64,000 nt of DNA from Hyphomicrobiales bacterium (GCA_016710435.1 JADJVV010000001.1:739912-803911); one strand, 5' to 3'; positions 5,072 through 49,314 are shown, numbered from the stretch's first letter. Notes: a model not told the origin generated them from the letters alone. Numbers and translations: made by a program.

Positions 5072-5105
5072 TTGTATGACAAATAGCCCGTCCCTTGTAT
5101 GACAA
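5072..5105. promoter_or_regulatory. Two copies of palindrome TTGTATGACAA (5072-5082, 5095-5105), FadR/GntR-type operators
   Basis: TTGT-N3-ACAA twice, 23 bp apart, in the divergent chvE/regulator intergenic region. Confidence 0.7.
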
Positions 5106-5134
5106 TTGCGAAGGGACAATTGCGGCAGCGCAAC

Positions 5135-5860
5135 ATGAGCGGCAGAGGCAAGACCAGGTCCAGCGGCAACGTTCACGCCAAGATCGAACGCGCCATCGGC
5201 GAGCGCATCCTCAGTGGCGAGTTCACGCCGGGCGCACTCCTGCCCAACGAGGCGGAGTGGGGACGGACCTATGACGCCAGCCGCACCGCCGTGCGCGAAG
5301 CCATCAAGAGCCTCACCGCCAAGGGCCTGATCCAGTCCCGCCCCAAGATCGGCTCGCGCGTGGAGCCCCGGACCCGCTGGAACATGTTGGACCGCGACGT
5401 GCTGGCCTGGCACCGCGCCGCCATGGACCGCAAGGCCTTCCTCGCCTCCACCCAGGAAGCCCGCCGTCTCGTCGAGCCCGGCATCGCCGAACTCGCCGCG
5501 CGCAAGCACACGCCCCTGCAACTGGAGCGCCTCGCCGCGGCCTGCCACGGCATGGCGACGGCGAGTGAAGCCCAGGCGATGGTGGCCGCCGACGTGGAAT
5601 TCCACGAGGCCCTGCTGGCCTGCGCCAACAACGAACTTCTGGTGCCCTTCTCCATCATCATCGAACAGGCGCTGACCAACCTGTTCGATTACACCACCCG
5701 CAAGAACCCCCATTTCAACCGCGCCCTGAAACTGCACCAGAACATCGTCCGCGCCGTGACCGCCGCTGACGGCCCCGCCGCCCGCAAGGCCATGCTGGAC
5801 CTGCTGGCCGACACCGACACCATCATCAAGGTCTATCCCGCCCCCCGGAAAAAGCGTTAA
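5135..5860 (+). CDS. FadR/GntR-family transcriptional regulator (DgoR-like)
   Basis: wHTH LLPNEAEWGRTYDASRTAVREAIKSLTAKGLIQSRPKIGSRV plus FCD domain (ADVEFHEALL, NELL, LHQNIVRAV). Start set at ATG 5135; the track start is 5099. Confidence 0.88.
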   Translation: MSGRGKTRSSGNVHAKIERAIGERILSGEFTPGALLPNEAEWGRTYDASRTAVREAIKSLTAKGLIQSRPKIGSRVEPRTRWNMLDRDVLAWHRAAMDRKAFLASTQEARRLVEPGIAELAARKHTPLQLERLAAACHGMATASEAQAMVAADVEFHEALLACANNELLVPFSIIIEQALTNLFDYTTRKNPHFNRALKLHQNIVRAVTAADGPAARKAMLDLLADTDTIIKVYPAPRKKR

Positions 5861-5935
5861 CGGGTTGCACAACCGCAGGGGTGACGGGGCTTGGCTGTTC
5901 TGCTATCTCGCAGCCGCGAAACAGCGGGAAAAGCC

Positions 5936-6529
5936 ATGCGCACAGCCACCATCAGCCGCAAGACAACCGAAACCGGCATCACCTGCACGGTCAACCTGGA
6001 CGGCACCGGCACCTATGACGTGAAGACGGGCGTCGGCTTCTTCGACCACATGATGGAGCAACTGGCCCGCCATTCTCTCATGGACATCACCCTCAAGGCC
6101 ACGGGCGACCTGCACATTGACGCCCACCACACGGTGGAGGATTCGGGCATTGCCCTGGGCCAGGCCGTGGCCAAGGCCCTGGGCGACCGCAAGGGCATCC
6201 GCCGCTACGCCTCCTGCGACCTGCCCATGGACGAAACCCTGACCCGCGTCGCCATCGACGTCTCGGGCCGTCCCTTCCTCGTCTTCAATTGCGAGTATCC
6301 GCGCGACAAGATCGGCGACTTCGACACAGAACTGGTGCGCGAATGGTTCCAGGCCTTTGCCATGAACGCAGGCATCACGCTGCACCTCGAGAACACTGCG
6401 GGCGGCAACGCCCACCACATCGCCGAGTCCAGCTTCAAGGCGCTGGCGCGCTCGCTCCGCGACGCCCTTGAAATCGATCCGCGCCAGAAGGATCGCATTC
6501 CCTCCACCAAGGGGTCGCTCGCCGGATGA
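5936..6529 (+). CDS. hisB: Imidazoleglycerol-phosphate dehydratase
   Basis: [38 protein letters not shown]. Confidence 0.96.
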
Positions 6530-7179
6530 TGAAGACCGTCATCATCGACTACGGCTCCGGCAACCTCCACTCGGCCCTCAAGGCCTTCGAGCGCGCCGCG
6601 GCGGACAACGGCATCAAGGGCAAGATCATCGTCAGCAACAAGGCCGACGAGGTGGCGACCGCCGACCGCATCGTGCTGCCGGGCGTCGGTGCCTTCAAGG
6701 ATTGCCGCGACGGCCTGAATGCCGTGGAGGGCATGCGCGAGGTTCTGCAACAGCAGGTGATCGCGCGCGGCCGCCCATTCCTCGGCATTTGCGTCGGCAT
6801 GCAGTTGATGGCCACGCGCGGGCTGGAACACCAGACGACGCAAGGCCTGGGATGGGTGGCGGGCGACGTGGTGCGCATCACCCCCGATGACCCCGCCCTG
6901 AAGATCCCGCACATGGGCTGGAACACGCTGAAGCTCCACTCCGGCCATCCCGTGATGCAGGACATCGCCACGGGCGAAAGTGGCCTGCACGCCTATTTCG
7001 TACACTCCTATCACCTCCAGCCAACGCTGCCGGAAGACCTGATCGCCACGACCGATTACGGCGGCGCCGTCACCGCGATCGTCGGCTATGAAAATCTGGT
7101 GGGCACGCAATTCCATCCCGAGAAGAGCCAGGAACTGGGCCTCCGCCTCATCGCCAATTTCCTGCGCTGGAAGCCCTGA
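6526..7179 (+). CDS. hisH: Imidazole glycerol phosphate synthase, glutaminase subunit
   Basis: [36 protein letters not shown]. Confidence 0.96.
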
Positions 7180-7910
7180 TGATCCTCTTTCCCGCCATCG
7201 ACCTGAAGGACGGCAAGTGCGTGCGCCTGAAGCTGGGCGACATGAACCAGGCCACCATCTACAACGAGGATCCCGCCGCGCAGGCACGCGACTTCGAGCA
7301 GCAGGGATTCCGCTGGCTGCATGTGGTCGATCTCAACGGTGCCTTCGCCGGACAATCGGTGAATGGTGCCGCAGTGGAAGCGATCATCAAGGCGACGAAA
7401 AATCCTGTGCAACTGGGTGGCGGCATCCGTACGCTGGCCCACATCGAAAGCTGGTTGTCGAAAGGGCTTGCCCGCGTCATCCTCGGCACCATCGCCGTAC
7501 GTGATCCGGCCTTGGTGAAGGAAGCCTGCCGCCTTTTCCCCGGCAAGGTTGCCGTCGGCATTGATGCCAAGGGCGGCAAGGTGGCGGTCGAAGGCTGGGC
7601 CGAGGCCTCCTCGCTCGGCGTCATCGAAATGGCGCGGACCTTCGAAGGCGCGGGCGTCGCCGCCATCATCTACACCGACATCGACCGCGACGGCGTGCTC
7701 ACCGGCATCAACTGGGATGCTACCATCGCGCTCTCCAATGCCGTCTCCATTCCGGTGATTGCCTCGGGCGGGCTTGCCTCGCTCGCCGACATTCGCCGCA
7801 TGGTGCAACCTGACGCCTGCAATCTCGCAGGCGCCATCACCGGCCGCGCCCTCTACGACGGACGCATCAATGCAGGCGAAGCCCTGAAACTCATCGCGGA
7901 GGCCACATGA
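7179..7910 (+). CDS. hisA: ProFAR isomerase
   Basis: [39 protein letters not shown]. Confidence 0.96.
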
Positions 7911-8656
7911 CAAAAGTGATGCTCATCACCGGCGGCAGCCGTGGCATCGGGGCGGCGACGGCGCGCATGGCGGCAAGCCGCGGCTACCGTGTGGTCGTGA
8001 ATTATGTCGCCGACCGCGCCGCAGCCGAAGCCCTGTGCGAGGACATCCGCAGCGATGGCGGCATGGCGCTGGCCTTCCAGGGCGACATGGCAAAGCTCGG
8101 CGACATCGAGCGCCTGTTCCGCCAAACAATCCTCAGCTTCGGTGCCATTGATGTCGTCGTGAACAATGCCGGCATCACTGGCAAGTCGAGCCGCCTCGAT
8201 CAGGCCGACCCGCAGGTGATCGCCGATACCATCGCCATCAACACCACGGGCGCCATCTACGTGGCGCGCGAGGCGGTGAAACACCTTTCGACGCGAAACG
8301 GCGGCAAGGGCGGCGTCATCGTCAACATTTCCTCCGCCGCCGCCCTGCTGGGCAGCCCCGGTGAATATGTCTGGTATGCCGCCAGCAAGGGCGCCATCGA
8401 TTCCCTGACGACCGGCCTCGCCAAGGAAGTGGCGATGGAGGGCGTGCGGGTCGTCTCCGTGACGCCGGGCATGACCGAAACCGAAATCCATGAGCGCTCC
8501 ACCGGCGATGCCGCCCGTGTCGAACGCATCCGCCCCGGCATTCCCATGCAGCGCATTGGCAAGGCGGAGGAAATGGCGGAAGCCATTCTCTTCCTCGCCA
8601 GCGATGCCGCAAGCTACATCACGGGCACGACATTGCGCGTGGCGGGAGGCCGCTGA
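7907..8656 (+). CDS. Short-chain dehydrogenase/reductase (classical SDR)
   Basis: [21 protein letters not shown] (YxxxK), [18 protein letters not shown]. Confidence 0.9.
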
Positions 8657-9426
8657 TGCTGAAGATGCGTGTCATCCCCTGCCTCGATGTGAAGGACGGG
8701 CGCGTCGTCAAGGGCGTGAACTTCGTGAACCTCGTCGATGCCGGCGATCCCGTGGAAGCAGCCAAGGCCTATGACAAGGCCGGCGCCGATGAACTCTGCT
8801 TCCTCGATATCACGGCCACCCACGAAGGCCGCGGCATCATGCTCGACGTGGTGACACGCACCGCCGAAGCCTGCTTCATGCCGCTCACCGTGGGTGGCGG
8901 CGTGCGCACACTCGAAGATATTCGCGCCCTTTTGCTGGCGGGCGCGGACAAGGTCTCGATCAATTCCGCCGCCGTCGCCAACCGTCAATTCGTCAAGGAC
9001 GCGGCCGGGAAGTTCGGCAGCCAGTGCATTGTCGTCGCCATCGACGCCAAGGAAGTCTCGCCCGGAAAATACGAAATCTTCACCCATGGCGGGCGCAAGG
9101 AAACCGGCATCGACGCCGTGCAATTCGCCCGCGAGGTGGAAGCACTTGGAGCAGGCGAAATCCTGCTCACCTCCATGGACCGCGACGGCACCGGCAAGGG
9201 CTTCAACCTCGCCCTTACCCGCGCCATCGCCGATGCTGTGACCATCCCCGTGATCGCCTCGGGTGGTGTAGGCACGCTCGACCACTTGGCCGAAGGTATA
9301 ACGGAAGGCCACGCCACGGCGGTGCTCGCCGCCTCGATTTTCCACTTCGGAACCTTTACGATTGCCCAGGCAAAGGAAGCCATGGCGAAGGCGGGGATAC
9401 CCGTCCGCATGGCAGCGGGTTCGTGA
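8656..9426 (+). CDS. hisF: Imidazole glycerol phosphate synthase, cyclase subunit
   Basis: [44 protein letters not shown]. Confidence 0.96.
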
Positions 9427-9752
9427 TGACAACATTCAGCCAGCTGGAAATTCTCGCCAAGGAGATTGAGGCCAAGGCCTTCTCTTCCCCCGACTCTTCC
9501 TATACCGCGAAGCTGCTCTCCAGGGGCGTGGACAAATGCGCCAAGAAACTGGGCGAGGAAGCGGTGGAACTGGTGATCGCCGCCGTTGAGAAGAACAAGG
9601 CCGAGGTCACGAAAGAAGCCGCCGATGTTCTCTATCACCTGCTGGTGCTGCTGCAGGCCGCCGGCGTGTCGCCATCGGCCGTGATGGACGAGTTGAAGCG
9701 TCGCGAAGGCACCTCGGGCCTCGCGGAAAAGGCAAGCCGCCCGCATGATTGA
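9426..9752 (+). CDS. hisE: Phosphoribosyl-ATP diphosphatase
   Basis: [40 protein letters not shown] 9426 overlaps the hisF stop. Confidence 0.93.
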
Positions 9753-10707
9753 CCTCGCCGAGGACTTCGCCCGCGAAGTCTCTCCTTTCCGCCGCTTCTC
9801 GCGCAGCGAATGGGCCGAACTCCGCGCCGACACGCCCATGACGCTGACCAGCGCCGACCTCGACGAGGTGCGCTCGCTCAACGACAAGATCGACCTTGCG
9901 GAAGTGGAGGCAGTGTATCTGCCGCTGTCGCGCCTGCTCAATCTTTATGTGCAGGCCAGCCAGAAGCTGTTCCACGCCTCCAACCAGTTCCTCCACATCC
10001 GCGATCTGAAGGTGCCCTATGTGATCGGCATCGCGGGCAGCGTCTCCAGCGGCAAGAGCACCACGGCGCGCATCCTCCGCCGGCTGTTGTCGCGCTGGCC
10101 GTCGCATCCGAAGGTGGACCTTGTCACCACTGATGGTTTCCTCCTGCCCAACGCCGTGCTCGACCGTGAGGGCCTGATGCAGCGCAAGGGCTTCCCCGAG
10201 TCCTACGACCTCCAGCGCATCCTCCGCTTCATGTCCGACATCAAGTCCGGCGAGCGCGATGTGGAAGCGCCGGTCTATTCGCATCTCACCTATGACGTGA
10301 TCCCCGGCCAGACGCAGGTGGTGGACCAGCCCGACATCCTCATCGTCGAAGGCATCAACGTGCTGCAGACGGGCCGCCCGCCCCGCGATGGCCGCGGCAT
10401 TCCCAACACCTCCGACTTCTTCGATTTCTCGATCTTCATCGACGCCGAAGAATCCGACCTGAAGAGCTGGTACATCGAGCGCTTTTTCACCCTGCGGAGC
10501 GGCGCCTTCCAGAACCCCAGGTCCTACTTCCACCGCTACGCCAAGCTGAGCGACGACGAGGCGCGCGATACAGCAACGCGCATCTGGAACGCCATCAACC
10601 TGGTGAACCTGAAAGAAAACATCCTCCCCACCCGCCCCCGCGCCGACCTGGTGCTGCGCAAGGGCACCGACCACATGGTCCGGAGCGTCTTCCTGCGAAG
10701 GCTGTAG
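9745..10707 (+). CDS. coaA: Type I pantothenate kinase
   Basis: [45 protein letters not shown]. Confidence 0.95.
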
Positions 10708-10794
10708 GGGAAGCTGTTCAACGTCAACCTGCTTGCTTTGCGTTCCGGGCGGGCGACATGCTAACCAAGGGAAAAACAGGGGCTCACGCACATC

Positions 10795-11310
10795 ATGCCG
10801 ATCGGAAAACCATCCTATTCCTACGAAGAAATTCTGGCCTGTGGGCGGGGCGAGTTGTTTGGCCCCGGCAACGCGCAGCTTCCGTTGCCGCCCATGCTGA
10901 TGTTCGACCGCATCACCGAGATCAGCAAGGATGGCGGCTCGTCGGGGCTGGGCAAGGTCGTCGCCGAATTCGACATCAAGCCCGATCTCTGGTTCTTCCC
11001 CTGCCATTTCCAGGGCGACCCCGTGATGCCCGGCTGCCTCGGTCTCGATGCGCTGTGGCAGTTGACGGGCTTCTTCCTCGGCTGGCTGGGCGAACCCGGC
11101 AAGGGCCGTGCCCTCGGCGTGGGCGAAGTGAAGTTCACCGGCATGGTGACGCCCAAGGTCAAGACCGTGACCTATGAGGTCGATGTCACCCGCCTGATCC
11201 TCCGCAAGCTGAAGCTCGCCGTCGCCAACGGCGTGATGAAAGCCGATGGCGAACCCATCTATCAGGTGACCGACATGAAGGTCGGCCTGTTCCAGCCGGA
11301 AGCCAAGTAG
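10795..11310 (+). CDS. fabA: 3-hydroxyacyl-ACP dehydratase/isomerase
   Basis: [31 protein letters not shown]. Confidence 0.95.
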
Positions 11311-11325
11311 GGGACGGCCCCTTTT
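11309..11325 (+). terminator. Short GC hairpin + T-run after fabA (possible weak terminator)
   Basis: AGGGG-ACGG-CCCCT-TTT. Confidence 0.35.
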
Positions 11326-11401
11326 AACGCATGGAATGGCCCGCGCCGTCCTGCTAGAAGACGGTGAAGACCGGTTCATTGTTCCACGGAGTGTGAAGAG
11401 A

Positions 11402-12616
11402 ATGCGGCGAGTCGTCGTCACAGGCATGGGGATCATCTCCTCGATCGGCAACAATGTGCAGGAGGTGACTGCTTCCCTGCGTGAGGCCAAGTCGGGCATT
11501 GTCTCGGCCGACAAGTACAGGGAACTGGGGTTCCGCTGCCAGGTGCATGGTGCCCCCCATTACGATCTCGATACCGTGGACCGCCGCGCCCGCCGCTTCA
11601 TGGGAGATGGCGGGGCCTGGAACTACGTGGCCATGCAACAGGCCATCGCCGATGCAGGCCTTGAAGAAAAAGACGTCAAGAACGAGCGCACCGGCATCAT
11701 CATGGGTTCGGGCGGCCCCTCGACCAAGACAATTGTTGCCGCCGCCGACACCACCCGCGAGAAAGGCCCAAAGCGCGTCGGCCCCTTCGCCGTGCCGCCA
11801 TCGATGTCCTCGGCCCACTCGGCCGTGCTGGCCACGCCGTTCGGCATTCGCGGCGTGAACTACACGATCTCCAGCGCCTGCGCCACGTCGGCCCACTGCA
11901 TCGGCAATGCCGCCGAAATGATCCAGTGGAACAAGCAGGATGTGATGTTCGCCGGTGGCGGCGAGGAACTGGACTGGACTCTTTCGGTACTCTTCGACGC
12001 CATGGGCGCCATGTCGTCCAAATACAACGACCGGCCGGCCTCCGCCTCCCGCGCCTATGACAAGAACCGTGACGGCTTCGTGATCGCCGGCGGGGCTGGC
12101 GTCGTCGTTCTCGAAGAACTTGAGCACGCCAAGGCGCGTGGCGCCAAAATCTACGGCGAACTCGTGGGCTATGGCGCCACGAGCGACGGCTACGACATGG
12201 TCGCCCCCTCGGGCGAAGGTGCTGTACGCTGCATGCGCATGGCCATGAAGGACGTGAAGGGTGAGATCGACTACATCAACCCGCACGGCACCTCGACGCC
12301 CGTGGGCGATGCCAAGGAAATCGAAGCGATCCGCGAGGTTTTTGGCGCGAAGATTCCGCCGATTTCCTCTACCAAGTCGCTGACCGGCCATTCGCTCGGA
12401 GCAACCGGCGTGCAGGAGGCGATCTATTCCCTCCTCATGATGAAGAATGGCTTCCTCTGCGAGAGCGCCAACATCGAGGAACTCGACCCCGCATTCGAAG
12501 GTGTGCCCATCCTGCGCAAGCGGGTGGACAACGCCAAGGTCGATACCGTGATGTCGAACTCCTTCGGCTTCGGCGGCACCAATGCCACCCTCGTCTTCCA
12601 ACGTTACAACGGATAA
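11402..12616 (+). CDS. fabB: Beta-ketoacyl-ACP synthase I
   Basis: [46 protein letters not shown]. Confidence 0.95.
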
Positions 12617-12623
12617 GCAGAAC

Positions 12624-13424
12624 ATGACCGACGGACTGATGAAGGGCCGCCGCGGCCTCGTAATGGGTGTGGCCAACGATCATTCGATCGCTTGGGGCAT
12701 CGCCCAGAACCTGGCGAAGCATGGGGCGGAACTGGCCTTCACCTACCAGGGCGAGGCGTTCGGCAAGCGTCTGGCGCCGTTGGCGGAAAGCGTCGGTTCG
12801 AAGATCCTGATCAACTGCGACGTGGAAGACATTGCCTCCGTCGATGCCGCCTTCGCCGAACTGAAGAAGCAGTGGGGCAAGATCGACTTCCTCGTCCATT
12901 CCATCGGCTTCTCCGACAAGAACGAGTTGAAGGGCAAATACGCCGACACGACGCGCGCCAATTTCTCCCGCACAATGGTGATCTCGTGTTTCTCCTTCAC
13001 GGAAATCGCCAAGCGCGCCGCCGAGATGATGCCCGACGGCGGCTCGATCCTCACCCTCACCTATGGCGGCTCACAGCGCGTGATGCCGAACTACAATGTG
13101 ATGGGCGTGGCCAAGGCGGCGCTGGAAGCCAGCGTCCGCTATCTCGCCGCCGATTTTGGCCCGCAGGGAATTCGCGTGAATGCGATTTCCGCAGGCCCCA
13201 TGCGCACCCTCGCAGGCGCCGGCGTGGGCGATGCCCGCGCCATGTTCAACTACCAGCATGCGCACGCGCCGCTCCGCCGCACGATCACGCTGGATGAAGT
13301 GGGCGGCTCGGCCGTCTACCTGCTCTCGCCGCTGTCCGGCGGTGTCACTGGCGAAATCCATTACGTGGATTCCGGTTACAACATCATCTCGATGCCGCGG
13401 CCTGAAGACCTCGCCAAGGTCTGA
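12624..13424 (+). CDS. fabI: Enoyl-ACP reductase
   Basis: GVANDHSIAWGIA, PNYNVMGVAKAALE, NAISAGPMRTLA. Confidence 0.95.
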   Translation: MTDGLMKGRRGLVMGVANDHSIAWGIAQNLAKHGAELAFTYQGEAFGKRLAPLAESVGSKILINCDVEDIASVDAAFAELKKQWGKIDFLVHSIGFSDKNELKGKYADTTRANFSRTMVISCFSFTEIAKRAAEMMPDGGSILTLTYGGSQRVMPNYNVMGVAKAALEASVRYLAADFGPQGIRVNAISAGPMRTLAGAGVGDARAMFNYQHAHAPLRRTITLDEVGGSAVYLLSPLSGGVTGEIHYVDSGYNIISMPRPEDLAKV

Positions 13425-14432
13425 TCACCAACCCTCAAGCGCCAGCTTGCCGATCATGCGGCCTTCTTCCAGCGCCGCGTGCGCCGCGATGAGGTTGGCC
13501 GCGTTGATCTTGCCCATGCGTTTCGTGAGCGTCGTGCGGAGCTTGCCGTCGTCCACGAGGCGCGCCACCGCATCAAGAAGCCGCGCCTGCTCGCTGATGT
13601 CGGCGGTCTTCTCCACGGGCCGCGTGAACATGAATTCCCAGTGGAAGGAAATGCTCTTCGTCTTGAAGGGCGACATGTCGAGCCCGTCGGCAATCAATCC
13701 AAGCCGTCCCTGCGGGGCAATGAGAGCGGCAATGTCCGGTCCATAGGGCTGGGCATTGCTGGTGCAAAAGACCAGGCCAGGCGCTCCGACACCGAGTGCC
13801 GCAATTTGCGGCGTCAACGGCTGGCTGTGGTCGATCACGTGATGCGCACCCATGTTGCGGCACCACGCCTGCGTTTCCGCCCGTGACGCCGTGGCGATGA
13901 TGGTGAGGCCGGTCAATTGCCGCGCCAGCTGGATGGCAATGGAACCCACGCCACCGGCCCCGCCGATGATCAGGATCGCAGCTGCGGCACCAGGCACAGG
14001 CCGCGCCACGTCCAGCCGGTCGAACAGCATCTCCCAGGCCGTGATGGCGGTCAGCGGCAGAGCAGCGGCCTCTGCCCAATCGAGCGACGCCGGCTTGTGG
14101 CCCACGATGCGGGCATCGACAGCCTGCCGCTCCGCGTTGCTGCCCGGGCGGTCAATGGCGCCCGCATACCAGACCTCATCGCCCACCTTGAACAGCCCCG
14201 CCGCATCCGGACCGACGGCGCGCACAACGCCCGCTGCATCGTATCCCAGCACCTTTGGCCCCGCCGCAGGAGCAGAGCGCTTGCGCACCTTGGTATCGAC
14301 CGGGTTCACAGAGACGGCCTTCACATCGACAACAATGTCGTGGCCCGTGGCCACCGGTTCAGGCACGGTCACATCCTCCAGCGCCTTGGGGTCCGTGACG
14401 GGGAGAGACGTGACGTAGCCGGCAGCGCGCAT
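13425..14432 (-). CDS. Zinc-binding alcohol dehydrogenase family / quinone oxidoreductase-like (MDR)
   Basis: AVSVNPVDTKVR, LGYDAAG, PLTAITAWEMLFDRL, GGAGGVGS, SFHWEFMFTR. Confidence 0.88.
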   Translation of the reverse strand: MRAAGYVTSLPVTDPKALEDVTVPEPVATGHDIVVDVKAVSVNPVDTKVRKRSAPAAGPKVLGYDAAGVVRAVGPDAAGLFKVGDEVWYAGAIDRPGSNAERQAVDARIVGHKPASLDWAEAAALPLTAITAWEMLFDRLDVARPVPGAAAAILIIGGAGGVGSIAIQLARQLTGLTIIATASRAETQAWCRNMGAHHVIDHSQPLTPQIAALGVGAPGLVFCTSNAQPYGPDIAALIAPQGRLGLIADGLDMSPFKTKSISFHWEFMFTRPVEKTADISEQARLLDAVARLVDDGKLRTTLTKRMGKINAANLIAAHAALEEGRMIGKLALEGW

Positions 14433-14571
14433 GAAGAAACTCCAGAAATTGCAGGGGCAGGAAGAAGAATGTGGAAGCCCGAATATCAGGCTGCGACCCT
14501 AACACAATCGTTGCGCCCCGTGACAACAGCCGCGATAATTCACCTGAAACCAGCTTCAGTGAAAGTGCACC

Positions 14572-38703: not shown

Positions 38704-38809
38704 GGCCTGCCTCACCCGCATGGCAAGTGTGTGTGCATTGCCCTTGCGATTAAGCGCACAATTTGGAAAAGACCGTTCACCTCAACCCCCGCCCCACAAG
38801 GACCTGCCC

Positions 38810-39502: not shown

Positions 39503-39614
39503 CGTCCGGGCGGCCGCTCGCATCCCTAAAATTTGAGGCAATCTGTTTCGGAAGCATTCGCATTCCCTCTGTAGGATCATCCCTGACCTGAAGGGGCACC
39601 CAGGGACTGCGAAA

Positions 39615-40847: not shown

Positions 40848-40853
40848 CCGTCC

Positions 40854-42479
40854 TCAGCTGCTTTCCGGCACCATGTCGATTGCCCCGCAGGGGCATTCGG
40901 CGGCGCACAGGCCGCAGCCCTTGCAATAGTCGTAGTCGATGCGGAAGCGGTTGCCCGCCCCCAGCTTGATGATGGCGTTGTCCGGGCAGACGCCATAGCA
41001 ATTGTCGCATTCGAAGCAGTTGCCGCAGGAGAGACAGCGCCGCGCCTCGTAGAGCGCGTTCGTCTCGTCAAGCCCGCCCTGCACCTCCGCAAAACTGCGC
41101 ACGCGCCGTGCCGCCTCCAGCATTGGCCGCACCGTGGGCGAGGCATCCTCGTAGTACCAGGTGTTGAGGCGCTCGGGTGACGCGAGTCCATGCTTTTCAG
41201 CCGGCACATAGGGTGCTGCGCGCAGATACCCGTCGATATGGCGCGCGGCTTTCTTGCCGTGCCCCACGGCCACGGTCACGGTGCGTTCGGAGGGCGCCAT
41301 GTCGCCACCCGCGAACACGCCGGCACAACCCGTCATCATGTCGGGACCGACCTTGACCACGCCGTTCTCGATCACCACACCCGGCGCTTTCTCCAGCAAT
41401 GACAGGTCCACGTCCTGCCCCAGCGCGAGCACCAGGCTGTCGGCATCAAGCGTTTCGTATTCGCCCGTCGGCTGCGGAAAACCCTTGTCGTCCAGTGCCA
41501 TCTTTTCGATCTGCAGGGTGCCGCCGTCGATGGTCTTGATGGTGGAGAGCCACTTCATCGAGACGCCCTCTTCCAAAGCCTCTTCCACCTCGAAGTCATG
41601 GGCCGGCATCTTCTCGCGGGTGCGGCGATAGACGATGATTGCTTCCTCGGCCCCAAGACGGCGCGCCGTTCGGGCCACATCGATGGCCGTGTTGCCGCCG
41701 CCATAGACGACGACCTTGCGGCCGAGAAGCGGCGGTGCCTCGCCTTCCATGGACCGTAGCAATTGCACCGCATCCAGCACCTTGGCGGCGCCCGCAGCGG
41801 GAATATAGGCACGCTTGGCAATATGCGCGCCGACGGCGAGGAATGCCGCATCATATCCGCCCGCGATCATCTCCTGCTCGATGTCGGCCACCTTGCTGTC
41901 GAGATGAAGCGTCACGCCCATGTTGGTAATGCGCTTTACTTCCGCGTCGATGATGTGGCGCGGCAGGCGGTACTTCGGGATCCCGAAGCGCATCATGCCA
42001 CCGGCGAGCGGCCCCGCCTCGCGCAACGTGACGCCATGGCCCATGCGCCGCAGGTGATAGGCCGCCGACAGCCCGGCAGGCCCTGCCCCCACCACCAGCA
42101 CCGTCTTGCCGCTTTCAGCCGCAGGCGGATCGAACTGCCAGTCCTTCTCGATCGCAAGATCACCCAGGAAACGTTCCACCGAATTGATGCCGACCGCCTC
42201 GTCGATGCTGGCGCGGTTGCAGGCGCCTTCGCAGGGGTGGTAGCAGACACGGCCCATGATGGCGGGCAGCGGATTGTTCAGCGTGAGGGCGCGCCAGGCC
42301 TTTTCATAGTCACCCGCCTCTGCGTGGAAGAGCCAGGCCTGAATGTCCTCGCCTGCCGGGCAGGCGGCATTGCAGGGCGGCAGGCGGTCCACGTATTCGG
42401 GCCGCACGGTGCGCCAGGAGCCCGTCAGGTTCCGCTTGCTGGTGCCCACATCGAGCGCGATCGCATAGGGATGTTTCAT
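40854..42479 (-). CDS. GltD-like FAD/NAD(P) oxidoreductase fused to a C-terminal 2x[4Fe-4S] (PorD/delta-like) domain
   Basis: CNAACPAG, GRVCYHPCEGAC, GAGPAGL, GGGNTAID; C-terminal CGNCFECDNCYGVCP and CKGCGLCAAECP. Confidence 0.88.
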   Translation of the reverse strand: MKHPYAIALDVGTSKRNLTGSWRTVRPEYVDRLPPCNAACPAGEDIQAWLFHAEAGDYEKAWRALTLNNPLPAIMGRVCYHPCEGACNRASIDEAVGINSVERFLGDLAIEKDWQFDPPAAESGKTVLVVGAGPAGLSAAYHLRRMGHGVTLREAGPLAGGMMRFGIPKYRLPRHIIDAEVKRITNMGVTLHLDSKVADIEQEMIAGGYDAAFLAVGAHIAKRAYIPAAGAAKVLDAVQLLRSMEGEAPPLLGRKVVVYGGGNTAIDVARTARRLGAEEAIIVYRRTREKMPAHDFEVEEALEEGVSMKWLSTIKTIDGGTLQIEKMALDDKGFPQPTGEYETLDADSLVLALGQDVDLSLLEKAPGVVIENGVVKVGPDMMTGCAGVFAGGDMAPSERTVTVAVGHGKKAARHIDGYLRAAPYVPAEKHGLASPERLNTWYYEDASPTVRPMLEAARRVRSFAEVQGGLDETNALYEARRCLSCGNCFECDNCYGVCPDNAIIKLGAGNRFRIDYDYCKGCGLCAAECPCGAIDMVPESS

Positions 42480-43501
42480 GACGCCGCTCCCGTCGTTGCC
42501 TGCGCCACGGCCTCGGTCAATCCGAACTCCGCGATATGACGGTCGGCAATGGCCTGGATGCGCGCCACCCGCGGGTCCGTGACACCCCCCTTGAACAGAT
42601 GGGCAAAACGGCGCTGGAGCCTGAGATACTCCGTCACCGGCTTGGGCTGCCTGATCTTGCGCACATGGGTGATGTGTCCGCCTTCCGCCTCGAAGATGGG
42701 GAACAGGCCTGTTTCAATGGCAAGCCGGGCAAGGCGGATCGTGTCATGCGAGGCCGCACCCCAACCGAGGGGGCACGGCACATTGATCTGGATGTAGCGC
42801 GCACCGCGAATGCCCATCGCCTTTGTCACCTTGGCTTCGAGATCATGCAGGTCGGCGACACTTGCGGTGGCCACATAGGGAATGTCGTGGGCAACCGCGA
42901 TCTTGGGAACAAACTTGCCCGTGCCGAAGACATTGCCGGGCTCATCGCCCAGTGTGGGCGTCGTCGCCGTGCGCGCCGCCGGCGGCGTGGCGGACGAGCG
43001 CTGCACGCCCGTGTTCATGTAGCCTTCGTTGTCATAGCAGATGTAGAGAACGTCATCGTTGCGCTCGAACATGCCGGAGAGGCAGCCGAAACCGATGTCG
43101 GTGGTGCCGCCGTCTCCGCCCTGGGCAACGACGCGCGTGCCCGCGCGCCCCGTGACGCGCATCGCCGCAGCGACGCCCGTTGCCACAGCCGCCGCATTGC
43201 CGAAGAGCGAATGCATCCACGGCATCTGCCACGACGTTTCCGGATAGGGCGTGGTGAAGACCTCCAGACAACCCGTCGCGTTGACGGCGATGAGATTGCC
43301 GCCACTCGCCCGCATGGCGGCATCAATCGCGTAGCGCGCTCCTAGCGCCTCGCCGCAGCCCTGGCAGGCGCGGTGGCCGCAGGTGAGCGAGTTGGAGCGC
43401 GACAGGCTGGCCTGAACATTGCGTTCCGTTTCGTCAATGAGGCGGTTGCCGACAGTGAGCGTACCCTTCTGGTAGAATTTGAGCTTCTGGATCTCGTTCA
43501 T
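42476..43501 (-). CDS. 2-oxoacid:acceptor oxidoreductase beta subunit (TPP-binding, PorB-like)
   Basis: GHRACQGCG, NATGCLE, GGDGGTTDIG, YDNEGYMNTG, VPCPLGW; TGATG coupling with the alpha subunit. Confidence 0.9.
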   Translation of the reverse strand: MNEIQKLKFYQKGTLTVGNRLIDETERNVQASLSRSNSLTCGHRACQGCGEALGARYAIDAAMRASGGNLIAVNATGCLEVFTTPYPETSWQMPWMHSLFGNAAAVATGVAAAMRVTGRAGTRVVAQGGDGGTTDIGFGCLSGMFERNDDVLYICYDNEGYMNTGVQRSSATPPAARTATTPTLGDEPGNVFGTGKFVPKIAVAHDIPYVATASVADLHDLEAKVTKAMGIRGARYIQINVPCPLGWGAASHDTIRLARLAIETGLFPIFEAEGGHITHVRKIRQPKPVTEYLRLQRRFAHLFKGGVTDPRVARIQAIADRHIAEFGLTEAVAQATTGAAS

Positions 43502-44808
43502 CACGATGTCTCCTTCTCCGCCGCTGCCTGGCGTTCGGCGTCGGCGCGCTGGGCCCGCTCGGCCCGCTCGCGCTCGAGAATCTTCAACACATTCTCCGCC
43601 GATGGGCCCGACCGCCGCGCCTTGCCCTTGCGATGGATTTCCCGCGCGATGACACGCTCGTTGAGGTCCATGAAATGCGGACCTTCCCACGGCTGGATCA
43701 GCGCCTGGCGGAAGACGCGGTGCAGCGATGCCTTGGTGACGGGACGGCCACCCAGCCCTGCGATCACCGCGTGCATGTGGGGCGATTGCGGCATGTCGCG
43801 CAGCGCGATGGCGATGTTGCTCGCCAATGGTCCGCCCATTCCCGGATCGAGGCTCTTGTCGATCACGATCACGTCGCGCGCCTGCGTCAGCACCTCGCGC
43901 AACGCCTTGGCCGGGAACGGCCGGAAGGTGACGAGACTGACAAGGCCGATGAGAATGCCTTCGCCCCGCATCTCATCGATGACATCCTTGATGGTGCCGT
44001 TGATCGAACCCATCGCAACGACCACCGTCTCGGCATCGTCCATGGCGTAGCTCCGCAGCAATCCCCCGGCTTCGCGCCCGAAGCGCTGCCTGAAATCGCG
44101 CGCCATCTGCTCGATCAGGCGAAACGCCGTCTGCTGCTTGTAGAATTGCAAGTAGCGCACCTCCGTGAAGGCATCGGGCCCCACCATCGCGCCGATGGAG
44201 ATCGGATCTTCCGGGTCCAGCACCTGCACCGGTTCATAAGGAGGCAGGTAGGCATCCACATCCGCTTGCGCGGGAATGTCGATCCGTTCCATGGCATGCG
44301 TGAGGATGAAGCCATCCACGCAGACCATCGTGGGCACGGACAATTCTTCCGCCAGCTTGAAGGCGATGACGTGAAGGTCGGCTGCTTCCTGGTTGTGCTC
44401 GGCAAAAAGCTGTATCCACCCCGACTCGCGGAGCGCCATGGCATCGGAGTGATCGTTCCAGATGTTGATGGGCGCGCCGATGGCACGGTTGCCCAGCGTC
44501 ATCACGATGGGAAGGCCGAGCCCCGCCGCGTTGTAGACCGCCTCCGCCATGAACAGGAGACCCTGGCTGGCCGTGGCCGTATAGGCGCGGGCTCCCGCCG
44601 CAGAGGCGCCGATCGCCACCGACAGGGCCGCGAACTCGCTTTCCACATTGATGAACTCGCAGTTCTGCACATCACCCGTGCGGACCAGTTCACCCAGTCC
44701 TTCCACGATATGCGTCTGCGGCGTGATCGGATAGGCACAGACCACCTGAGGGCGGCAGAGGCCGATCACCTTCGCCATGGCCTTGGAGCCTTCGATTTGC
44801 TCAAGCAT
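43501..44808 (-). CDS. 2-oxoacid:acceptor oxidoreductase alpha subunit (PorA-like)
   Basis: AYPITPQTHIVE, VESEFAALS, TATASQGL, WNDHSD, DGFILTH. Confidence 0.9.
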   Translation of the reverse strand: MLEQIEGSKAMAKVIGLCRPQVVCAYPITPQTHIVEGLGELVRTGDVQNCEFINVESEFAALSVAIGASAAGARAYTATASQGLLFMAEAVYNAAGLGLPIVMTLGNRAIGAPINIWNDHSDAMALRESGWIQLFAEHNQEAADLHVIAFKLAEELSVPTMVCVDGFILTHAMERIDIPAQADVDAYLPPYEPVQVLDPEDPISIGAMVGPDAFTEVRYLQFYKQQTAFRLIEQMARDFRQRFGREAGGLLRSYAMDDAETVVVAMGSINGTIKDVIDEMRGEGILIGLVSLVTFRPFPAKALREVLTQARDVIVIDKSLDPGMGGPLASNIAIALRDMPQSPHMHAVIAGLGGRPVTKASLHRVFRQALIQPWEGPHFMDLNERVIAREIHRKGKARRSGPSAENVLKILERERAERAQRADAERQAAAEKETS

Positions 44809-45403
44809 GGAGAGCCTCCCGTGCAGCGGCCGCCGGACGGCCCAAGGCTGCGGCAACAATGTCATGGGCGGCGCGGGCGGCAATCACGTTGGCCTCGCCC
44901 ACCTTGCCGGGAAACGTGCGGCGGATCGCTTCCAGCACGGACGCGAGCGAGACAAGTCCTGACATCGCGGTGAACGCACCAAGGAGCGAGGTATTGGGCG
45001 CGGGCCTGCCCACGTGGCTGAGCGCCAGTTCCGTGGCAGCGACGGTTTGCGCATGGCCTTGCGACAGCCGTGCGGCAATGGCGTCCTGATGAAGGTCCGC
45101 GAAGCTCTTGCCGGTGTTGACCAGCAAATATCCGCTCGGCGAGAGGCCCTCCAGCACATCCATGGCACGGAAAAGGGTGGCATCCTGCACGATCAGCGCA
45201 TCAGGATTCTGGATCGGTTCGCGCAGGCGGATTTCGCGATCGGAAATGCGGCAGAAGGCAACAACCGGTGCGCCCATGCGCTCGGAGCCGAAACTGGGAA
45301 AGGCCTGGGCGTGTTTGCCTTCGATGAAGGCCGCAACCGAGAGCATCTCCGCCGCCGTCACGACTCCCTGCCCGCCCCGTCCGTGAATCCGAACCTGAAA
45401 CAT
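44801..45403 (-). CDS. 2-oxoacid:acceptor oxidoreductase gamma subunit (PorC-like)
   Basis: RIHGRGGQGVVTAA, FPSFGSERMGAPV, PNTSLLGA. Confidence 0.9.
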   Translation of the reverse strand: MFQVRIHGRGGQGVVTAAEMLSVAAFIEGKHAQAFPSFGSERMGAPVVAFCRISDREIRLREPIQNPDALIVQDATLFRAMDVLEGLSPSGYLLVNTGKSFADLHQDAIAARLSQGHAQTVAATELALSHVGRPAPNTSLLGAFTAMSGLVSLASVLEAIRRTFPGKVGEANVIAARAAHDIVAAALGRPAAAAREALHA

Positions 45404-45461
45404 CAGCGTCTCCCATCGGCCGTCAACCGGGGGAGTTGTAACATCCGTCGGGTGGCGCGAC

Positions 45462-45475
45462 TTGACTCACATCAA
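45462..45475 (-). promoter_or_regulatory. FNR/FixK (CRP-FNR family) box
   Basis: TTGACTCACATCAA (minus: TTGATGTGAGTCAA), 9/10 match to TTGAT-N4-ATCAA, centred 65.5 bp upstream of the gamma-subunit ATG. Confidence 0.75.
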
Positions 45476-45512
45476 GCCGCCAGCGCGGAGCACGTGCTTT
45501 GCAGGAGGCCCG

Positions 45513-46574
45513 CTAGACTTTCTCGCGGAATTTCTCGACGTAGACGTTGATGACAAGGGCCGCCAGCAGGATGAGGCCGCGGATCAGGATTTTCTGGAAC
45601 GAATCCATCTGGATATGATCCAGTCCGTTGTTCACCACGCCAAGCACAAGGAGACCGATGATGGTATTCCCGATCCCGCCCCTTCCGCCGAACAGGCTGG
45701 TGCCGCCCACCACAACGGCGGCAATGGCATCCAGCAAGTATGTATCGAACTGGTTCTGCTGGGCCGAGCCGAAGTAGGCCACGCCCAGCATGCCGGCGAT
45801 GCCAGAGCACAACGCGCTGATGACCATGACGGAGCCGATGACCAGCTTCACGTTGACGCCCGAATATTCCGCCGCCTCGCGGTTGCCGCCCACCATGTAA
45901 ACGTAGCGCCCGAAACGCGTGTAGGTCAGCACCAGATGCCCGACGATGAAGAAGATGAGGCAAACGATGATGGTCCAGCCCACGGGAATGAACAGCGCCT
46001 TCCCAGCCGCATCGACGCCCAGCGGAATCTGGAATGCCGTCTTGGCACCAAGCAGAGTCACGAGGTCCGGATACTGGTAGGCAATCTGGCCCCGCACCAG
46101 CAGCGCCGAAACGCCATTGGCAATCTGCATGATGGCGAGCGTCATGATGAAGGACGGGATGCCGATCGATGTCATGCCGAAGGCCGTGATCAGCCCGAAG
46201 GCCAGCGCCGACATCAGCGTCAGGATGATCGCCAGTGCACCATTCAGCGGAATGTTGGCGATGTTCACGTAGTCCGGCTGTATGGTGAAATAGGCGACCG
46301 TGATGCCGACGGCATTGGCGACGGCGGCCACCGACAGATCAATCTCCGCCGTGAGAATGACGAAGGTGAGGCCAACCGCGATGATGCCCGTGATGGACAT
46401 CTGCCGGATGATGTTCACCGCGTTGTCGAGCGTGGCGAAAGTCGTGGTGGTGGAAGAGAAGAACACCACCAGCGCCACGAGGGTGAGCAGCGGCGCCAGC
46501 GTACGCAGCTTGTCGGCGATGGCCCGCTTGGGATTGAAGCTCTTGGCGGCGGCGGTATCTGTGCTCACGTTCAT
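45513..46574 (-). CDS. Sugar ABC transporter permease (CUT2)
   Basis: AEIDLSVAA, PSFIMTLA, YMVGGNREAAEYSGV, LDAIAAVVVGGTSL. Confidence 0.9.
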   Translation of the reverse strand: MNVSTDTAAAKSFNPKRAIADKLRTLAPLLTLVALVVFFSSTTTTFATLDNAVNIIRQMSITGIIAVGLTFVILTAEIDLSVAAVANAVGITVAYFTIQPDYVNIANIPLNGALAIILTLMSALAFGLITAFGMTSIGIPSFIMTLAIMQIANGVSALLVRGQIAYQYPDLVTLLGAKTAFQIPLGVDAAGKALFIPVGWTIIVCLIFFIVGHLVLTYTRFGRYVYMVGGNREAAEYSGVNVKLVIGSVMVISALCSGIAGMLGVAYFGSAQQNQFDTYLLDAIAAVVVGGTSLFGGRGGIGNTIIGLLVLGVVNNGLDHIQMDSFQKILIRGLILLAALVINVYVEKFREKV

Positions 46575-46584
46575 CTGGCCTTTC

Positions 46585-48105
46585 TCAAGCTGCCGTCAAC
46601 AGGTCGGATTTGGTGACAGTGCCCGACGTCATTTCACTCACCACGGTCCCGCGCTTCACCACATAGATCTTGTCGGCCAGCGTCAGGATGGTTTCGGGTT
46701 CCGTGGAGAGGACGAGGATCGACACACCCTTGTCGCGCAACGCCTTGATGATGCGGATCACGTCTTCCTTGGCGCCCACGTCCATGCCGCGCGTCGGCTC
46801 GGACAGGATCAGGATTTTCGGAAGGCTGGTCAGCCACTTCGCCAGGGCCACCTTTTGCTGGTTTCCGCCCGAAAGTGAACCGAGGTCGATGTCCGTCAAC
46901 GGCGGCCTGATCTGCAGGTCCTTGATCTGGTGTTGGGCCACAACGCGCTCCTGCTGCGGCTTGAGCAGGATGCGGTGAATGCGCCCCAGCATTGAGATGC
47001 TGACATTCTTGAACACGGGTTCATTGCGGAACAGCATCATGCCGCGGTTTTCGGGAACGAAGGCAAGGCCTGCCCTGCGTGCCGCGGCGGTGGATCGGAA
47101 ATGCGCTGGCTTGCCTTCCAGCGTGATGTTGCCCCGCGTGAAGGCGTGCCGCCCGAACAGCGCACGCGCGAATTCGATCAGGCCGCTTCCCATGAAGCCA
47201 TACATGCCCGTGATTTCGCCGGGGCGGAGTTCGATCGATACACCGTTCAGCGACCGGCCATCGCCCACCTCGCGCGCCACGAGAATGGGTTGCGCGTCCG
47301 GCGCACCCCGAAGAACTGCCGTTTCGCCCATGTGCATGTCGGCCGAGCCGCGCCCGATCATGTGGCCGATGATCTTGTCCTTGTCGAGATTGGCGCGCGG
47401 CTCCGTGGCAACGCGGCGGCTGTTGCGGAACACGGTGATGCGGTCGGAGATGTCGAGCACGTCATCGAGGAAATGCGAAATGAAGACCAGGCCGCGGCCT
47501 TCGGCGCGCAACTTGCGCAAGGCCGAGAAGAGGCGCGCCACTTCCGGGGGTGAGAGTGCGGACGTGGGTTCGTCCAGGATGATGGTGCGGGCGCCGGAGA
47601 ACAGCACGCGCGACAACTCGATGAGTTGCTGGACTCCGACCGGCAATGTGCTCACCCGCGTGGACGGATCGATATCCACACCAAGGCTGCCGATCAGGGC
47701 CCGCGCCTGTTGCTTCATGCCGGACCAATCGATGATGCCGCCCGCCTTCACGGGCTGCACGCCAAGAAAAACGTTCTCGGCCACCGACAGGTCGGGAACC
47801 ACCGACAATTCCTGGTGCACCATGCCGATGCCGGCGGCGATGGCATCGCGCGCGGAGCGGAATTGCACCACGCGGCCCTCGACGCGCATCTCGCCCTCGT
47901 AGCCCGTGTGCAGGCCGGCGATGATCTTCATGAGGGTTGATTTACCGGCGCCGTTCTCGCCGACGAGACCATGGATCTCGCCGGGGAAGACAGAGAAGTC
48001 CACGTTCTGCAGCGCCGTCACGCCGCCGAACGTCTTGGAGACGCCTTTCAACTCGATCAACGGCACAGACGTGCCGTTGATCGCGTCGTGTGTGGGAGGA
48101 ACCAC
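46585..48105 (-). CDS. Sugar ABC transporter ATP-binding protein (CUT2)
   Basis: [38 protein letters not shown]. Confidence 0.9.
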   Translation of the reverse strand: MVPPTHDAINGTSVPLIELKGVSKTFGGVTALQNVDFSVFPGEIHGLVGENGAGKSTLMKIIAGLHTGYEGEMRVEGRVVQFRSARDAIAAGIGMVHQELSVVPDLSVAENVFLGVQPVKAGGIIDWSGMKQQARALIGSLGVDIDPSTRVSTLPVGVQQLIELSRVLFSGARTIILDEPTSALSPPEVARLFSALRKLRAEGRGLVFISHFLDDVLDISDRITVFRNSRRVATEPRANLDKDKIIGHMIGRGSADMHMGETAVLRGAPDAQPILVAREVGDGRSLNGVSIELRPGEITGMYGFMGSGLIEFARALFGRHAFTRGNITLEGKPAHFRSTAAARRAGLAFVPENRGMMLFRNEPVFKNVSISMLGRIHRILLKPQQERVVAQHQIKDLQIRPPLTDIDLGSLSGGNQQKVALAKWLTSLPKILILSEPTRGMDVGAKEDVIRIIKALRDKGVSILVLSTEPETILTLADKIYVVKRGTVVSEMTSGTVTKSDLLTAA

Positions 48106-48119
48106 GACAGAGGCCCTGA

Positions 48120-49175
48120 TCAGATCAGGAAGTTCTTCTGCAGCCAGAGATGACCTGCAGCCGTATCCTTGGTGATGACGGGACCGTCGGCGAGGATGAA
48201 GTTCGGAATGTCCTTGCCCGCCTTCTCTCCACCAGCGACCGCAGCGACGCCTGCCGCAACAGCCCAGCCATGGATGCGGCAGGACGGGTTGCGCACCGTC
48301 GCCACCATGGTGCCGTCGAGAACGGCGTTCACCGCCGGCGGCATCGCGTCGACGCCCGCGATCAGGATGTCGGTGCGGTTCTTGGCCTTCATCACGTTAT
48401 GGGCAGCGAGCGCCATGTCGTCGTTGTGGAAGAATGCACCCTTGATGTCGGGATGCTGCGTGAGCAACGAATCCCAGATGCGCGTCACTTTCGTCACGTC
48501 CCAGTCGGCGGGTTGCTCGTCGAGCAGCTTGATCTTGCCGTTGCCGTCGATCACCTGATGGAAGCCCTTGGCGCGTCCCTGTGCGCCGGAATGGCCCAGT
48601 GCGCCTTGCGTCATCACCACATTGCCCTCGCCGCCGATGGCGTTGATGAGCGCCGCGGTCACGACCGATCCCATCATCTGGTTGTCGGGCGCGATGAAGG
48701 TGTGGAGCGCAAGCTGGCCTTCGGGCGCCATCATCGTGTCCATGGCGATGACGGGCGTGCCCGCATCGATGACGCGCTGGATCGGCTCATTGAGTGTGCC
48801 GATGCCGAACGTCTGCAGCGCCACGAAATCCCACTTCTGCGTCGCCAGGTTTTCAACCGTGGCGCGCTGCTTGGTGGCCGACAGTTCTCCGTCGAACCAT
48901 GTGATTTCCACGTTCATCAGCTTGGCCCACGCTTCCGCCGCCTGCTTGCCCTGCGCGCACCATGTGGCCTGGAGACCGGCGTTGCCCATGGCAGCCTTCA
49001 AGGGCTTGCCAGACGGCTTGAGTTCCTGCGCGATCGCGGGATCGAAGCCCGCTTCCGCCAACATGATGGCGCCAAGCGCCGCCGCTCCGCCCATTGCCTT
49101 GAAAATGTCCCGGCGCGACGCATCCTCAAAGAGTTTGCGGTCGTCCAGAATCGTTTCTTCCTTCTTGCGTGCCAT
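48120..49175 (-). CDS. Sugar ABC transporter substrate-binding protein, Tat-type leader
   Basis: SRRDIFK twin-arginine motif, ITWFDGELS, QPADWD, FFHNDDMA, AGVDAMP. Confidence 0.88.
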   Translation of the reverse strand: MARKKEETILDDRKLFEDASRRDIFKAMGGAAALGAIMLAEAGFDPAIAQELKPSGKPLKAAMGNAGLQATWCAQGKQAAEAWAKLMNVEITWFDGELSATKQRATVENLATQKWDFVALQTFGIGTLNEPIQRVIDAGTPVIAMDTMMAPEGQLALHTFIAPDNQMMGSVVTAALINAIGGEGNVVMTQGALGHSGAQGRAKGFHQVIDGNGKIKLLDEQPADWDVTKVTRIWDSLLTQHPDIKGAFFHNDDMALAAHNVMKAKNRTDILIAGVDAMPPAVNAVLDGTMVATVRNPSCRIHGWAVAAGVAAVAGGEKAGKDIPNFILADGPVITKDTAAGHLWLQKNFLI

Positions 49176-49283
49176 TTGGGTCTCCCAATCTGATGTTCGT
49201 TTACGTGAAAAGCGAATTCAGTACGTCGACCGGCAGGTATGCCTGCTCTTCAAATTGTCGTCCTCTGCGGGACGAGGTGGAAA

Positions 49284-49314
49284 TATTTGTCATACAATAG
49301 GTGAAGGCTGTCAA
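49284..49314 (-). promoter_or_regulatory. Sigma70 -35 (TTGACA, 49309-49314) with an overlapping TTGTATGACAA operator (49287-49297)
   Basis: Minus strand reads TTGACA-gccttcaccta-TTGTATGACAAATA; the operator is identical over 14 bp to 5072-5085. Confidence 0.65.

Follow-up and report, generated by a model that had tools for sequence, protein, structure and literature searches.

Two sugar-uptake loci that lie 44 kb apart in a 64,000-nucleotide stretch of DNA from a Hyphomicrobiales bacterium (GCA_016710435.1 JADJVV010000001.1:739912-803911; hereafter the window) raise the question of whether they are controlled together. The first encodes the ATP-binding cassette (ABC) transporter ChvE-GguAB and, divergently, a regulator of the GntR/FadR subfamily (5135-5860, plus strand), while the second encodes a CUT2-type ABC transporter, whose binding-protein gene we call sbp2, beside a gene for an MtnK-family kinase. 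An initial annotation had proposed that a 14-bp sequence found at both loci is an operator through which the regulator represses both transporters. Comparison with related loci indicates that the most likely answer is a real but ordinary small two-operon regulon. We are close to certain that the repeated sites are genuine cis-regulatory elements, and we consider it very probable that they are operators of the FadR type. That the chvE-linked regulator binds at both loci is moderately probable, and if it does bind upstream of sbp2, it would probably act there as a repressor. The comparative support for a conserved two-operon regulon is good, short of proof that one protein binds both loci.

Recurrence of the motif in the window

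The 11-mer TTGTATGACAA, whose palindromic core reads TTGT-ATG-ACAA, has exact copies at 5072-5082 and 5095-5105 on the plus strand and at 49287-49297 on the minus strand. The first of these extends to the 14-mer TTGTATGACAAATA (5072-5085, plus strand), and its exact reverse complement stands at 49284-49297; the 14-bp identity and the third, 11-bp copy were thereby confirmed as exact matches. We refer to the three putative operators as O1 (TTGTATGACAAATA, 5072-5085, plus strand), O2 (TTGTATGACAA, 5095-5105, plus strand) and O3 (49284-49297, minus strand). The identical sequence shared by the two loci does not extend beyond the 14 bp, which indicates that they are not a duplicated segment.

Given the base composition of the window (63.3% GC), the exact 11-mer has a probability of approximately 8e-8 per position on both strands, corresponding to approximately 0.005 expected copies per 64 kb and 0.3 per 3.4 Mb. 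In dinucleotide shuffles, 0.29 sites were expected at up to one mismatch, and none of 100 shuffles gave four. We used two forms of the motif, a position weight matrix (TTGTATGAYAAWTR) and the pattern TTGT-N3-ACRA. When the matrix was built only from orthologous sites at the first locus, O3 scored 27.5 bits, the same as the regulator's own sites, and no other good site was found in the 64-kb window, the next unrelated site reaching 9 bits.

Conservation at the chvE-gguAB locus

A scan with the regulator protein, with one genome taken per species, returned 18 loci, the first 15 of which were compared (L001-L015). The regulator is divergent from chvE-gguAB in 13 of the 15, the other two (L007 and L010) not reaching far enough in that direction to include chvE, and the motif or a close variant (TTGTATGACAA, TTGTATGATAA, TTGTATTATAA or TTATATGACAA) is present upstream of the regulator in every one. 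This chvE-side motif, with the form TTGTATGAYAA or a variant of it, precedes the regulator gene by 25-80 nt and is kept down to 44% regulator identity, and TTGTATGACAAATA forms the longest invariant block in a seven-sequence alignment of the chvE/regulator intergenic region. A second copy at 23-bp spacing is confined to the closest relatives (L001-L003 and L109-L111). On the chvE side, the palindrome invariably has the centre TAT[G/T]A[C/T], oriented toward the regulator gene in every case, a constancy that would fit an overlapping -10-like hexamer (TATGAC, TATGAT or TATTAT) of the regulator promoter.

The exact 11-mer was found at both loci in three genomes, namely that of the window, GCA_016792865.1 and GCA_020161855.1, the latter two being metagenome-assembled. 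In GCA_016792865.1, whose regulator is 81% identical, TTGTATGACAA occurs twice at the chvE/regulator position (L109) and once upstream of sbp2 (L108). In GCA_020161855.1 (regulator 71% identical), it occurs once at the chvE/regulator position (L004) and once, inverted, upstream of sbp2 (L112), where no mtnK lies nearby. Across 1.02 Mb of related DNA, all 25 exact copies sit at one or the other of these two positions. The comparative scans support the proposal of a conserved FadR-type operator at both loci, in an arrangement that recurs in two other genomes. Within the window, the gene at 5135 is the only one of FadR type, and it adjoins two of the three motif copies. A transcript look-up placed the locus in DNA metagenome runs only, with one RNA run holding 4% of the sampled words.

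Conservation upstream of sbp2 and linkage to mtnK

Close homologues of sbp2 are very numerous in Hyphomicrobiales, and we gathered 91 sbp2 loci through exact-protein look-ups and one metagenome scan. TTGT-N3-ACRA, or its mirror, stands 85-141 nt before the start codon in 17 of 73 non-redundant sbp2 upstream regions; the remainder of the same loci held 4 matches in 494 kb (0.0014 per 170 nt), from which approximately 0.1 would be expected. In the subgroup to which the window belongs (L019, L028 and L108), the arrangement CTTGACA, 11 nt, TTGTATGAC is invariant and the spacer has diverged, so that the operator comes to span the spacer and the -10 region. At loci where mtnK is divergent, the palindrome is often TTGTCATACAA, i.e., in the opposite orientation, and such flips upstream of sbp2 are possible for a palindromic operator but not for a directional promoter element. 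Loci without the site show other contexts (L022, L025, and L026, the last with LacI-type repeats).

These data bear directly on whether the motif could have recurred by chance, or could be a promoter element instead of a protein-binding operator. The motif is AT-rich and parts of it resemble -10 and -35 hexamers (TATGAC, TTGTCA and ATGACA), but its expected frequency in the window is far below the observed one, no background copy was present in the 1.02 Mb of related DNA, and the sites keep fixed positions while their flanks diverge and occur in both orientations upstream of sbp2. We consider chance or a promoter element highly improbable.

The kinase gene mtnK was present in the fetched flank of 13 of the 17 sbp2 loci with a site, compared with 23 of the 73 sbp2 loci overall, and it adjoins the transporter in three different arrangements: upstream and co-directional (the window, L019 and L108), divergent (L021, L024 and L028-L031), and convergent downstream (L027). 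The initial annotation had held that co-regulation would tie the second transporter to monosaccharide or sugar-acid use rather than to methionine salvage. This exclusion was not supported by the comparison, in which mtnK is kept beside the transporter and the operator is enriched where it is kept. Because the mtnK link is itself conserved, the regulon link adds to it and does not replace it. The repeated, rearranged linkage argues that what the transporter takes up is a substrate of MtnK, such as 5-methylthioribose or 5-deoxyribose; judged from sequence, the kinase itself could use either. Escherichia coli controls the mtnK pathway in the manner of a pathway for a carbon source (PMC12632272).

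Two further patterns were seen upstream of sbp2. In L033, L035, L044 and L045, TGGT-N3-ACCA palindromes (TGGTATGACCA, TGGTCGGACCA, TGGTCCTACCA and TGGTCAGACCA) located approximately 45-130 nt upstream of sbp2 replace TTGT-N3-ACAA, which suggests that at these loci either the operator specificity has shifted or another regulator of the GntR type acts. A second sbp2 group (L021, L024, L029-L031, L038, L049, L064 and L112) carries a conserved (C/G)T(G/A)GACAA(A/T) box 6-9 nt after the palindrome, which could serve as a -35-like element or represent an additional half-site similar to the GACAAA arm.

Promoter context of the three sites

At the first locus, the candidate chvE promoter (5039-5067, minus strand) comprises a -35 hexamer CTTGAT (5062-5067), a 17-nt spacer and a -10 hexamer CTAAGG (5039-5044). 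Its hexamers and spacing are kept in seven aligned intergenic regions as CTTGAT-N17-CTAAGG/CTATGG, the same conserved blocks reading ATCAAG (5062-5067), 17 nt, and CCTTAG/CCATAG (5039-5044) on the plus strand. O1 ends 4 bp upstream of the candidate -35, and O2 lies 23 bp from O1, centre to centre, and 30 nt before the ATG of the regulator, with the two centres falling near -45 and -68 of the candidate chvE promoter. Repression of chvE is the presumed effect, although the site there stands just upstream of the conserved -35 candidate. On the plus strand, a second element, CTTGCG-N18-CTTAGT (5016-5045), is kept in six of seven relatives. It might serve as a promoter directed toward the regulator gene, overlapping the opposite-strand -10 candidate of chvE, in which case O1 and O2 would act as a roadblock.

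At the second locus, CTTGACA (49309-49315, minus strand) is the candidate -35 of sbp2 and stands 11 nt upstream of O3; it is invariant in the window, L019, L028 and L108. The initial annotation had pointed to a TTGACA beside the distal copy, and this hexamer was indeed located at 49309-49314 on the minus strand, in agreement with a repressing position for O3 between the -35 and the -10. The mtnK gene (49354-50643, minus strand; TIGR01767, 492 bits against a cut-off of 275) is the upstream neighbour of sbp2, and the 178-nt gap between the two genes contains the motif. Since mtnK lies upstream of O3, this site does not control mtnK in the window.

One regulator, two regulators or an activator

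Among 89 loci, only L026, which itself lacks the motif, had a FadR-type gene within 5-8 kb of sbp2, and the protein that binds the sbp2 site would thus be encoded elsewhere. Several observations weigh against a single repressor acting at both loci. Half-sites of the form TKGT-N3-ACMA are common to many FadR paralogues; the sbp2-side centres vary in other genomes (CCT, CGG, CTG and CGT), unlike those of the chvE side (TAT[G/T]A); and among the matches listed, no orthologue of the regulator was found on the 3.96-Mb contig that carries L019. In addition, a strict sigma-70 scan called no promoter at either locus, and a placement near -45 and -68, as at chvE, is also typical of activators.

The variable centres and the TGGT-N3-ACCA variants of other sbp2 loci together raise the possibility that, in at least some lineages, the sbp2 site belongs to a different, unlinked regulator. 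On a two-regulator account, O1 and O2 would serve the chvE-linked regulator and O3 another FadR-subfamily paralogue dedicated to the mtnK-linked transporter, the letter-for-letter identity of the sites reflecting the narrow sequence space of FadR half-sites. Such an account draws on the generic character of the FadR consensus, on sbp2-side sites that vary in their centres and go with mtnK adjacency, not with any known feature of chvE, on the TGGT-N3-ACCA palindromes, and on the absence of a regulator orthologue for the L019 genome among the matches listed. It fits less well with the identity of 14 out of 14 positions, among them those of the ATG centre, which is not palindromic, and of the AATA flank on the 3′ side, with a matrix score for O3 equal to that of the regulator's own sites, or with the exact 11-mer at both loci of three genomes whose regulators have diverged to 71%. 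Moreover, no candidate for a second regulator was found near sbp2 in the 89 loci, and the invariant chvE-side centre is explained by the -10-like hexamer (TATGAC/TATGAT/TATTAT) of the regulator gene. We view two separate regulators as possible but unlikely.

The regulator could also be shared and yet work in the other direction, as an activator or dual regulator that, when ligand-bound, activates chvE from approximately -45 and -68 and represses only its own gene, sbp2, or both. O1 and O2 are upstream of the conserved chvE -35 candidate and not over it, and in the second sbp2 group the palindrome is upstream of a TGGACA -35-like box, as an activator site might be. E. coli FadR itself activates fabA. 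Against this, the end of O1 is only 4 bp from the -35 hexamer, so close that RNA polymerase and a bound dimer would probably collide, and O3 in the window lies inside the promoter spacer and -10 region. Other sugar-acid regulators of the FadR type, such as UxuR, ExuR, LldR and PdhR, are repressors. DgoR, the closest relative of the regulator with a solved structure (see below), is likewise named a repressor (PMC11705089). An activating or dual role appears improbable to us, and repression of both transporters by the chvE-linked regulator is the reading that we carry forward.

Relatives of the regulator

The regulator has an N-terminal GntR winged helix-turn-helix domain (PF00392, 56.3 bits against a cut-off of 27) and a C-terminal, all-helical FCD effector domain (PF07729, 69.8 bits against a cut-off of 24.3). 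The FadR-subfamily consensus consists of TKGT and ACMA half-sites with 3 nt between GT and AC (PMC4494728), and TTGT-ATG-ACAA at 5072 and 5095 matches this TKGT-N3-ACMA pattern near the regulator's own gene, as a putative operator that is conserved in the 15 related loci. Its closest solved relative is PDB 7C7E (E 2e-31, approximately 34% identity over 212 residues in an end-to-end alignment), which is DgoR, the D-galactonate repressor of E. coli (PMC11705089). The operator of DgoR has the IR1 core TTGTAGTACAA, and two closely spaced repeats lie over the DgoR promoter; the protein is autoregulated (PMC11705089).

The window regulator shares with DgoR the combination of a winged helix-turn-helix with an FCD domain, the metal triad D146/H150/H195 and R102, an operator core (TTGTATGACAA in the window compared with TTGTAGTACAA), and two close inverted repeats over or near the promoter. 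The differences concern the ligand and the target genes. Residues Q173, R179, W181 and T191 of DgoR, which are needed for D-galactonate binding (PMC7674646), correspond to L, Y, T and A in the window regulator, S221 is replaced by T, and R224 falls outside the alignment. No dgoK, dgoA, dgoD or dgoT is adjacent, the neighbours being chvE-gguAB and hisBHA-SDR-hisF (SDR, short-chain dehydrogenase), and the proposed targets in the window are ABC importers, one of them unlinked, rather than a sugar-acid catabolic operon. We rejected the identification of the regulator as a DgoR orthologue on the grounds that the D-galactonate-contacting residues are changed save R102 and that no dgo genes are linked. 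With the metal triad kept and the galactonate-pocket residues changed, the regulator probably works like DgoR and responds to another ligand.

A hint as to this ligand comes from L013 and L014, where an orthologous regulator (44-52% identical, with the operator TTGTATGATAA) is followed by araB-araA-araD. These two loci (L013, 10677-16930; L014, 10638-16812), from two related metagenome-assembled genomes, combine chvE-gguAB, the regulator and an arabinose-galactose catabolic cluster, with galT-galK on the opposite strand. The araB-araA-araD and galT-galK context points to L-arabinose, D-galactose or derivatives of these as candidate ligands.

We also compared the arrangement with other known systems. 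In Agrobacterium tumefaciens, chvE is paired with GbpR, which is LysR-type. As in that system, the window regulator is divergent from chvE-gguAB and presumably senses a sugar; it differs in belonging to the GntR/FadR family, a pairing that is kept in at least 13 related loci. The FadR-subfamily regulons for sugars and sugar acids (UxuR/ExuR, LldR, PdhR and GlcC), for which comparative reconstructions are available (Suvorova et al., 2015; PMC4494728), resemble the proposed one in their TKGT-N3-ACMA operators, their autoregulation, and their small size with unlinked transporter operons. Control of the E. coli dihydroxyacetone phosphate (DHAP)-shunt operon (mtnK-mtnA-ald2) by MtnR and CRP likewise places an mtnK-linked function under a sugar-type repressor; MtnR, however, belongs to the DeoR family and is encoded beside its own operon (PMC12632272), whereas the window has a FadR-type operator, a remote candidate regulator, and a site that would control the transporter and not mtnK. 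In the literature, we found neither a described regulon joining chvE-gguAB with an mtnK-adjacent CUT2 transporter nor a link of chvE or gguA to a GntR/FadR regulator. The name GguR designates an unrelated galactarate/glucarate regulator.

Proposed mechanism and significance

In the model that we favour, the protein encoded at 5135-5860 would be the local regulator of chvE-gguAB, and its dimer would recognize TTGT-N3-ACAA, represented in the window by TTGTATGACAA. O1 and O2 would lie over or beside the promoter of the regulator itself, an arrangement that implies autoregulation, and would abut the chvE -35 candidate. O3 would fall in the promoter of the sbp2-ATPase-permease operon, between its CTTGACA -35 and its expected -10, where we propose that the bound protein blocks RNA polymerase. 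Without effector, the regulator would hold down both importers and itself; a sugar-derived ligand, probably akin to L-arabinose, D-galactose or one of the corresponding acids, would enter the metal-containing FCD pocket and release the protein from DNA, as in E. coli DgoR. We infer the identity of the binding protein, the sign of regulation and the effector from the genomic comparisons, and hold the model as a whole, in which one regulator keeps both importers and itself down until such a ligand releases it, to be somewhat better than even in probability. It can be extended, rather doubtfully, to a scheme in which the DgoR-like regulator couples the broad monosaccharide importer ChvE-GguAB with a CUT2 importer that keeps its place beside MtnK in many Hyphomicrobiales. 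This importer would be dedicated to 5-methylthioribose or 5-deoxyribose (or another C1-phosphorylated furanose), handled as a carbon source within a sugar regulon, and the structured sbp2 leader might add RNA-level control.

If true, the coupling of these two uptake systems would be one that nobody has drawn before. The proposed regulon lends itself to testing in a Hyphomicrobiales lineage of wastewater and freshwater (Aestuariivirga-like) that is uncultured or has been little studied. The chvE-gguAB genes, known above all from Agrobacterium for their control by GbpR and their part in virulence sensing, stand beside a FadR-type regulator in this lineage and would be under its control, and the operator upstream of sbp2 would offer the first approach to the regulation of a widespread ABC importer linked to mtnK. 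Simple binding screens could reveal both which effector the regulator responds to and which ligand the binding protein takes. The mechanism itself is textbook: a FadR-type repressor, a palindromic operator, and a small regulon with an unlinked transporter.

Gene content and minor observations

Family-profile matches upheld the gene identities given in the initial annotation and showed ChvE, GguA and GguB, a regulator with GntR and FCD domains, a CUT2 binding protein with its ATPase and permease, and an MtnK-family kinase. At the first locus, the gene order is chvE-gguA-gguB, and all three genes, on the minus strand, exceed NCBIfam equivalog cut-offs: the multiple-monosaccharide ABC transporter permease gguB (1007-2224; NF040906, 538 bits against 450), the ATP-binding protein gguA (2206-3807; NF040905, 859 bits against 810), and the substrate-binding protein chvE (3902-4969; NF040907, 512 bits against 460). 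The chvE start is GTG, with GGGAGGA ahead of it. Downstream of the regulator lie hisB-hisH-hisA-SDR-hisF, and the short-chain dehydrogenase gene between hisA and hisF (7907-8656, plus strand) is an insertion kept in L002-L004, L006, L109 and L110. A search of the plasmid collection returned distant chvE matches only.

For the regulator, a start at 5135 is consistent with how the gene is called in L109. Public calls in this family are often 253-258 residues long, as expected from the operator-internal ATG (5099 in the window, 253 residues); conservation of TTGCGGCAGCGCAAC-ATG and the L109 call favour the start at 5135 (241-246 residues). In L012, chvE and the regulator (8826-10447), and in L021, mtnK (6463-7739), appear split into pieces, which likely reflects frameshifts or long-read indel errors in those metagenome-assembled genomes.

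A direct repeat, ACAATTGCG, at 5102-5124 was dismissed because relatives do not keep it. The single other window site at up to one mismatch to TTGTATGACAA is TTGTATGACGA at 51218-51228 (plus strand), inside an NAD-epimerase/dehydratase open reading frame (50705-51754, minus strand). We set it aside as an operator given this intragenic position, and it is probably a chance copy, since 0.29 such sites are expected. The one-letter variant TTGTATGACGA is also the conserved sbp2-upstream site in L028, L047 and L051.

At the second locus, also on the minus strand, the permease (45513-46574) belongs to BPD_transp_2, the ATP-binding protein (46585-48105) has two ABC_tran domains, and sbp2 (48120-49175) encodes a CUT2 substrate-binding protein of the ribose/allose/galactofuranose-like type (Pfam Peripla_BP_4). 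The sbp2 product fell under every NCBIfam equivalog cut-off, and its PDB relatives bind ribose, allose or galactofuranose. Plasmid orthologues of sbp2 (in Skermanella and Roseomonas) had neighbours that were uninformative on ligand, and a strict terminator scan called nothing at either locus. Between O3 and the sbp2 start lies a conserved 5′ leader of approximately 110 nt (49176-49283, minus strand; alignment; fold z-score -2.0), for which an Rfam search gave no match. Across the window, L019, L028 and L108, this leader has changed far less than the promoter spacer, and its first hairpin, with the loop CGCAGA, is kept with differing stem sequences.

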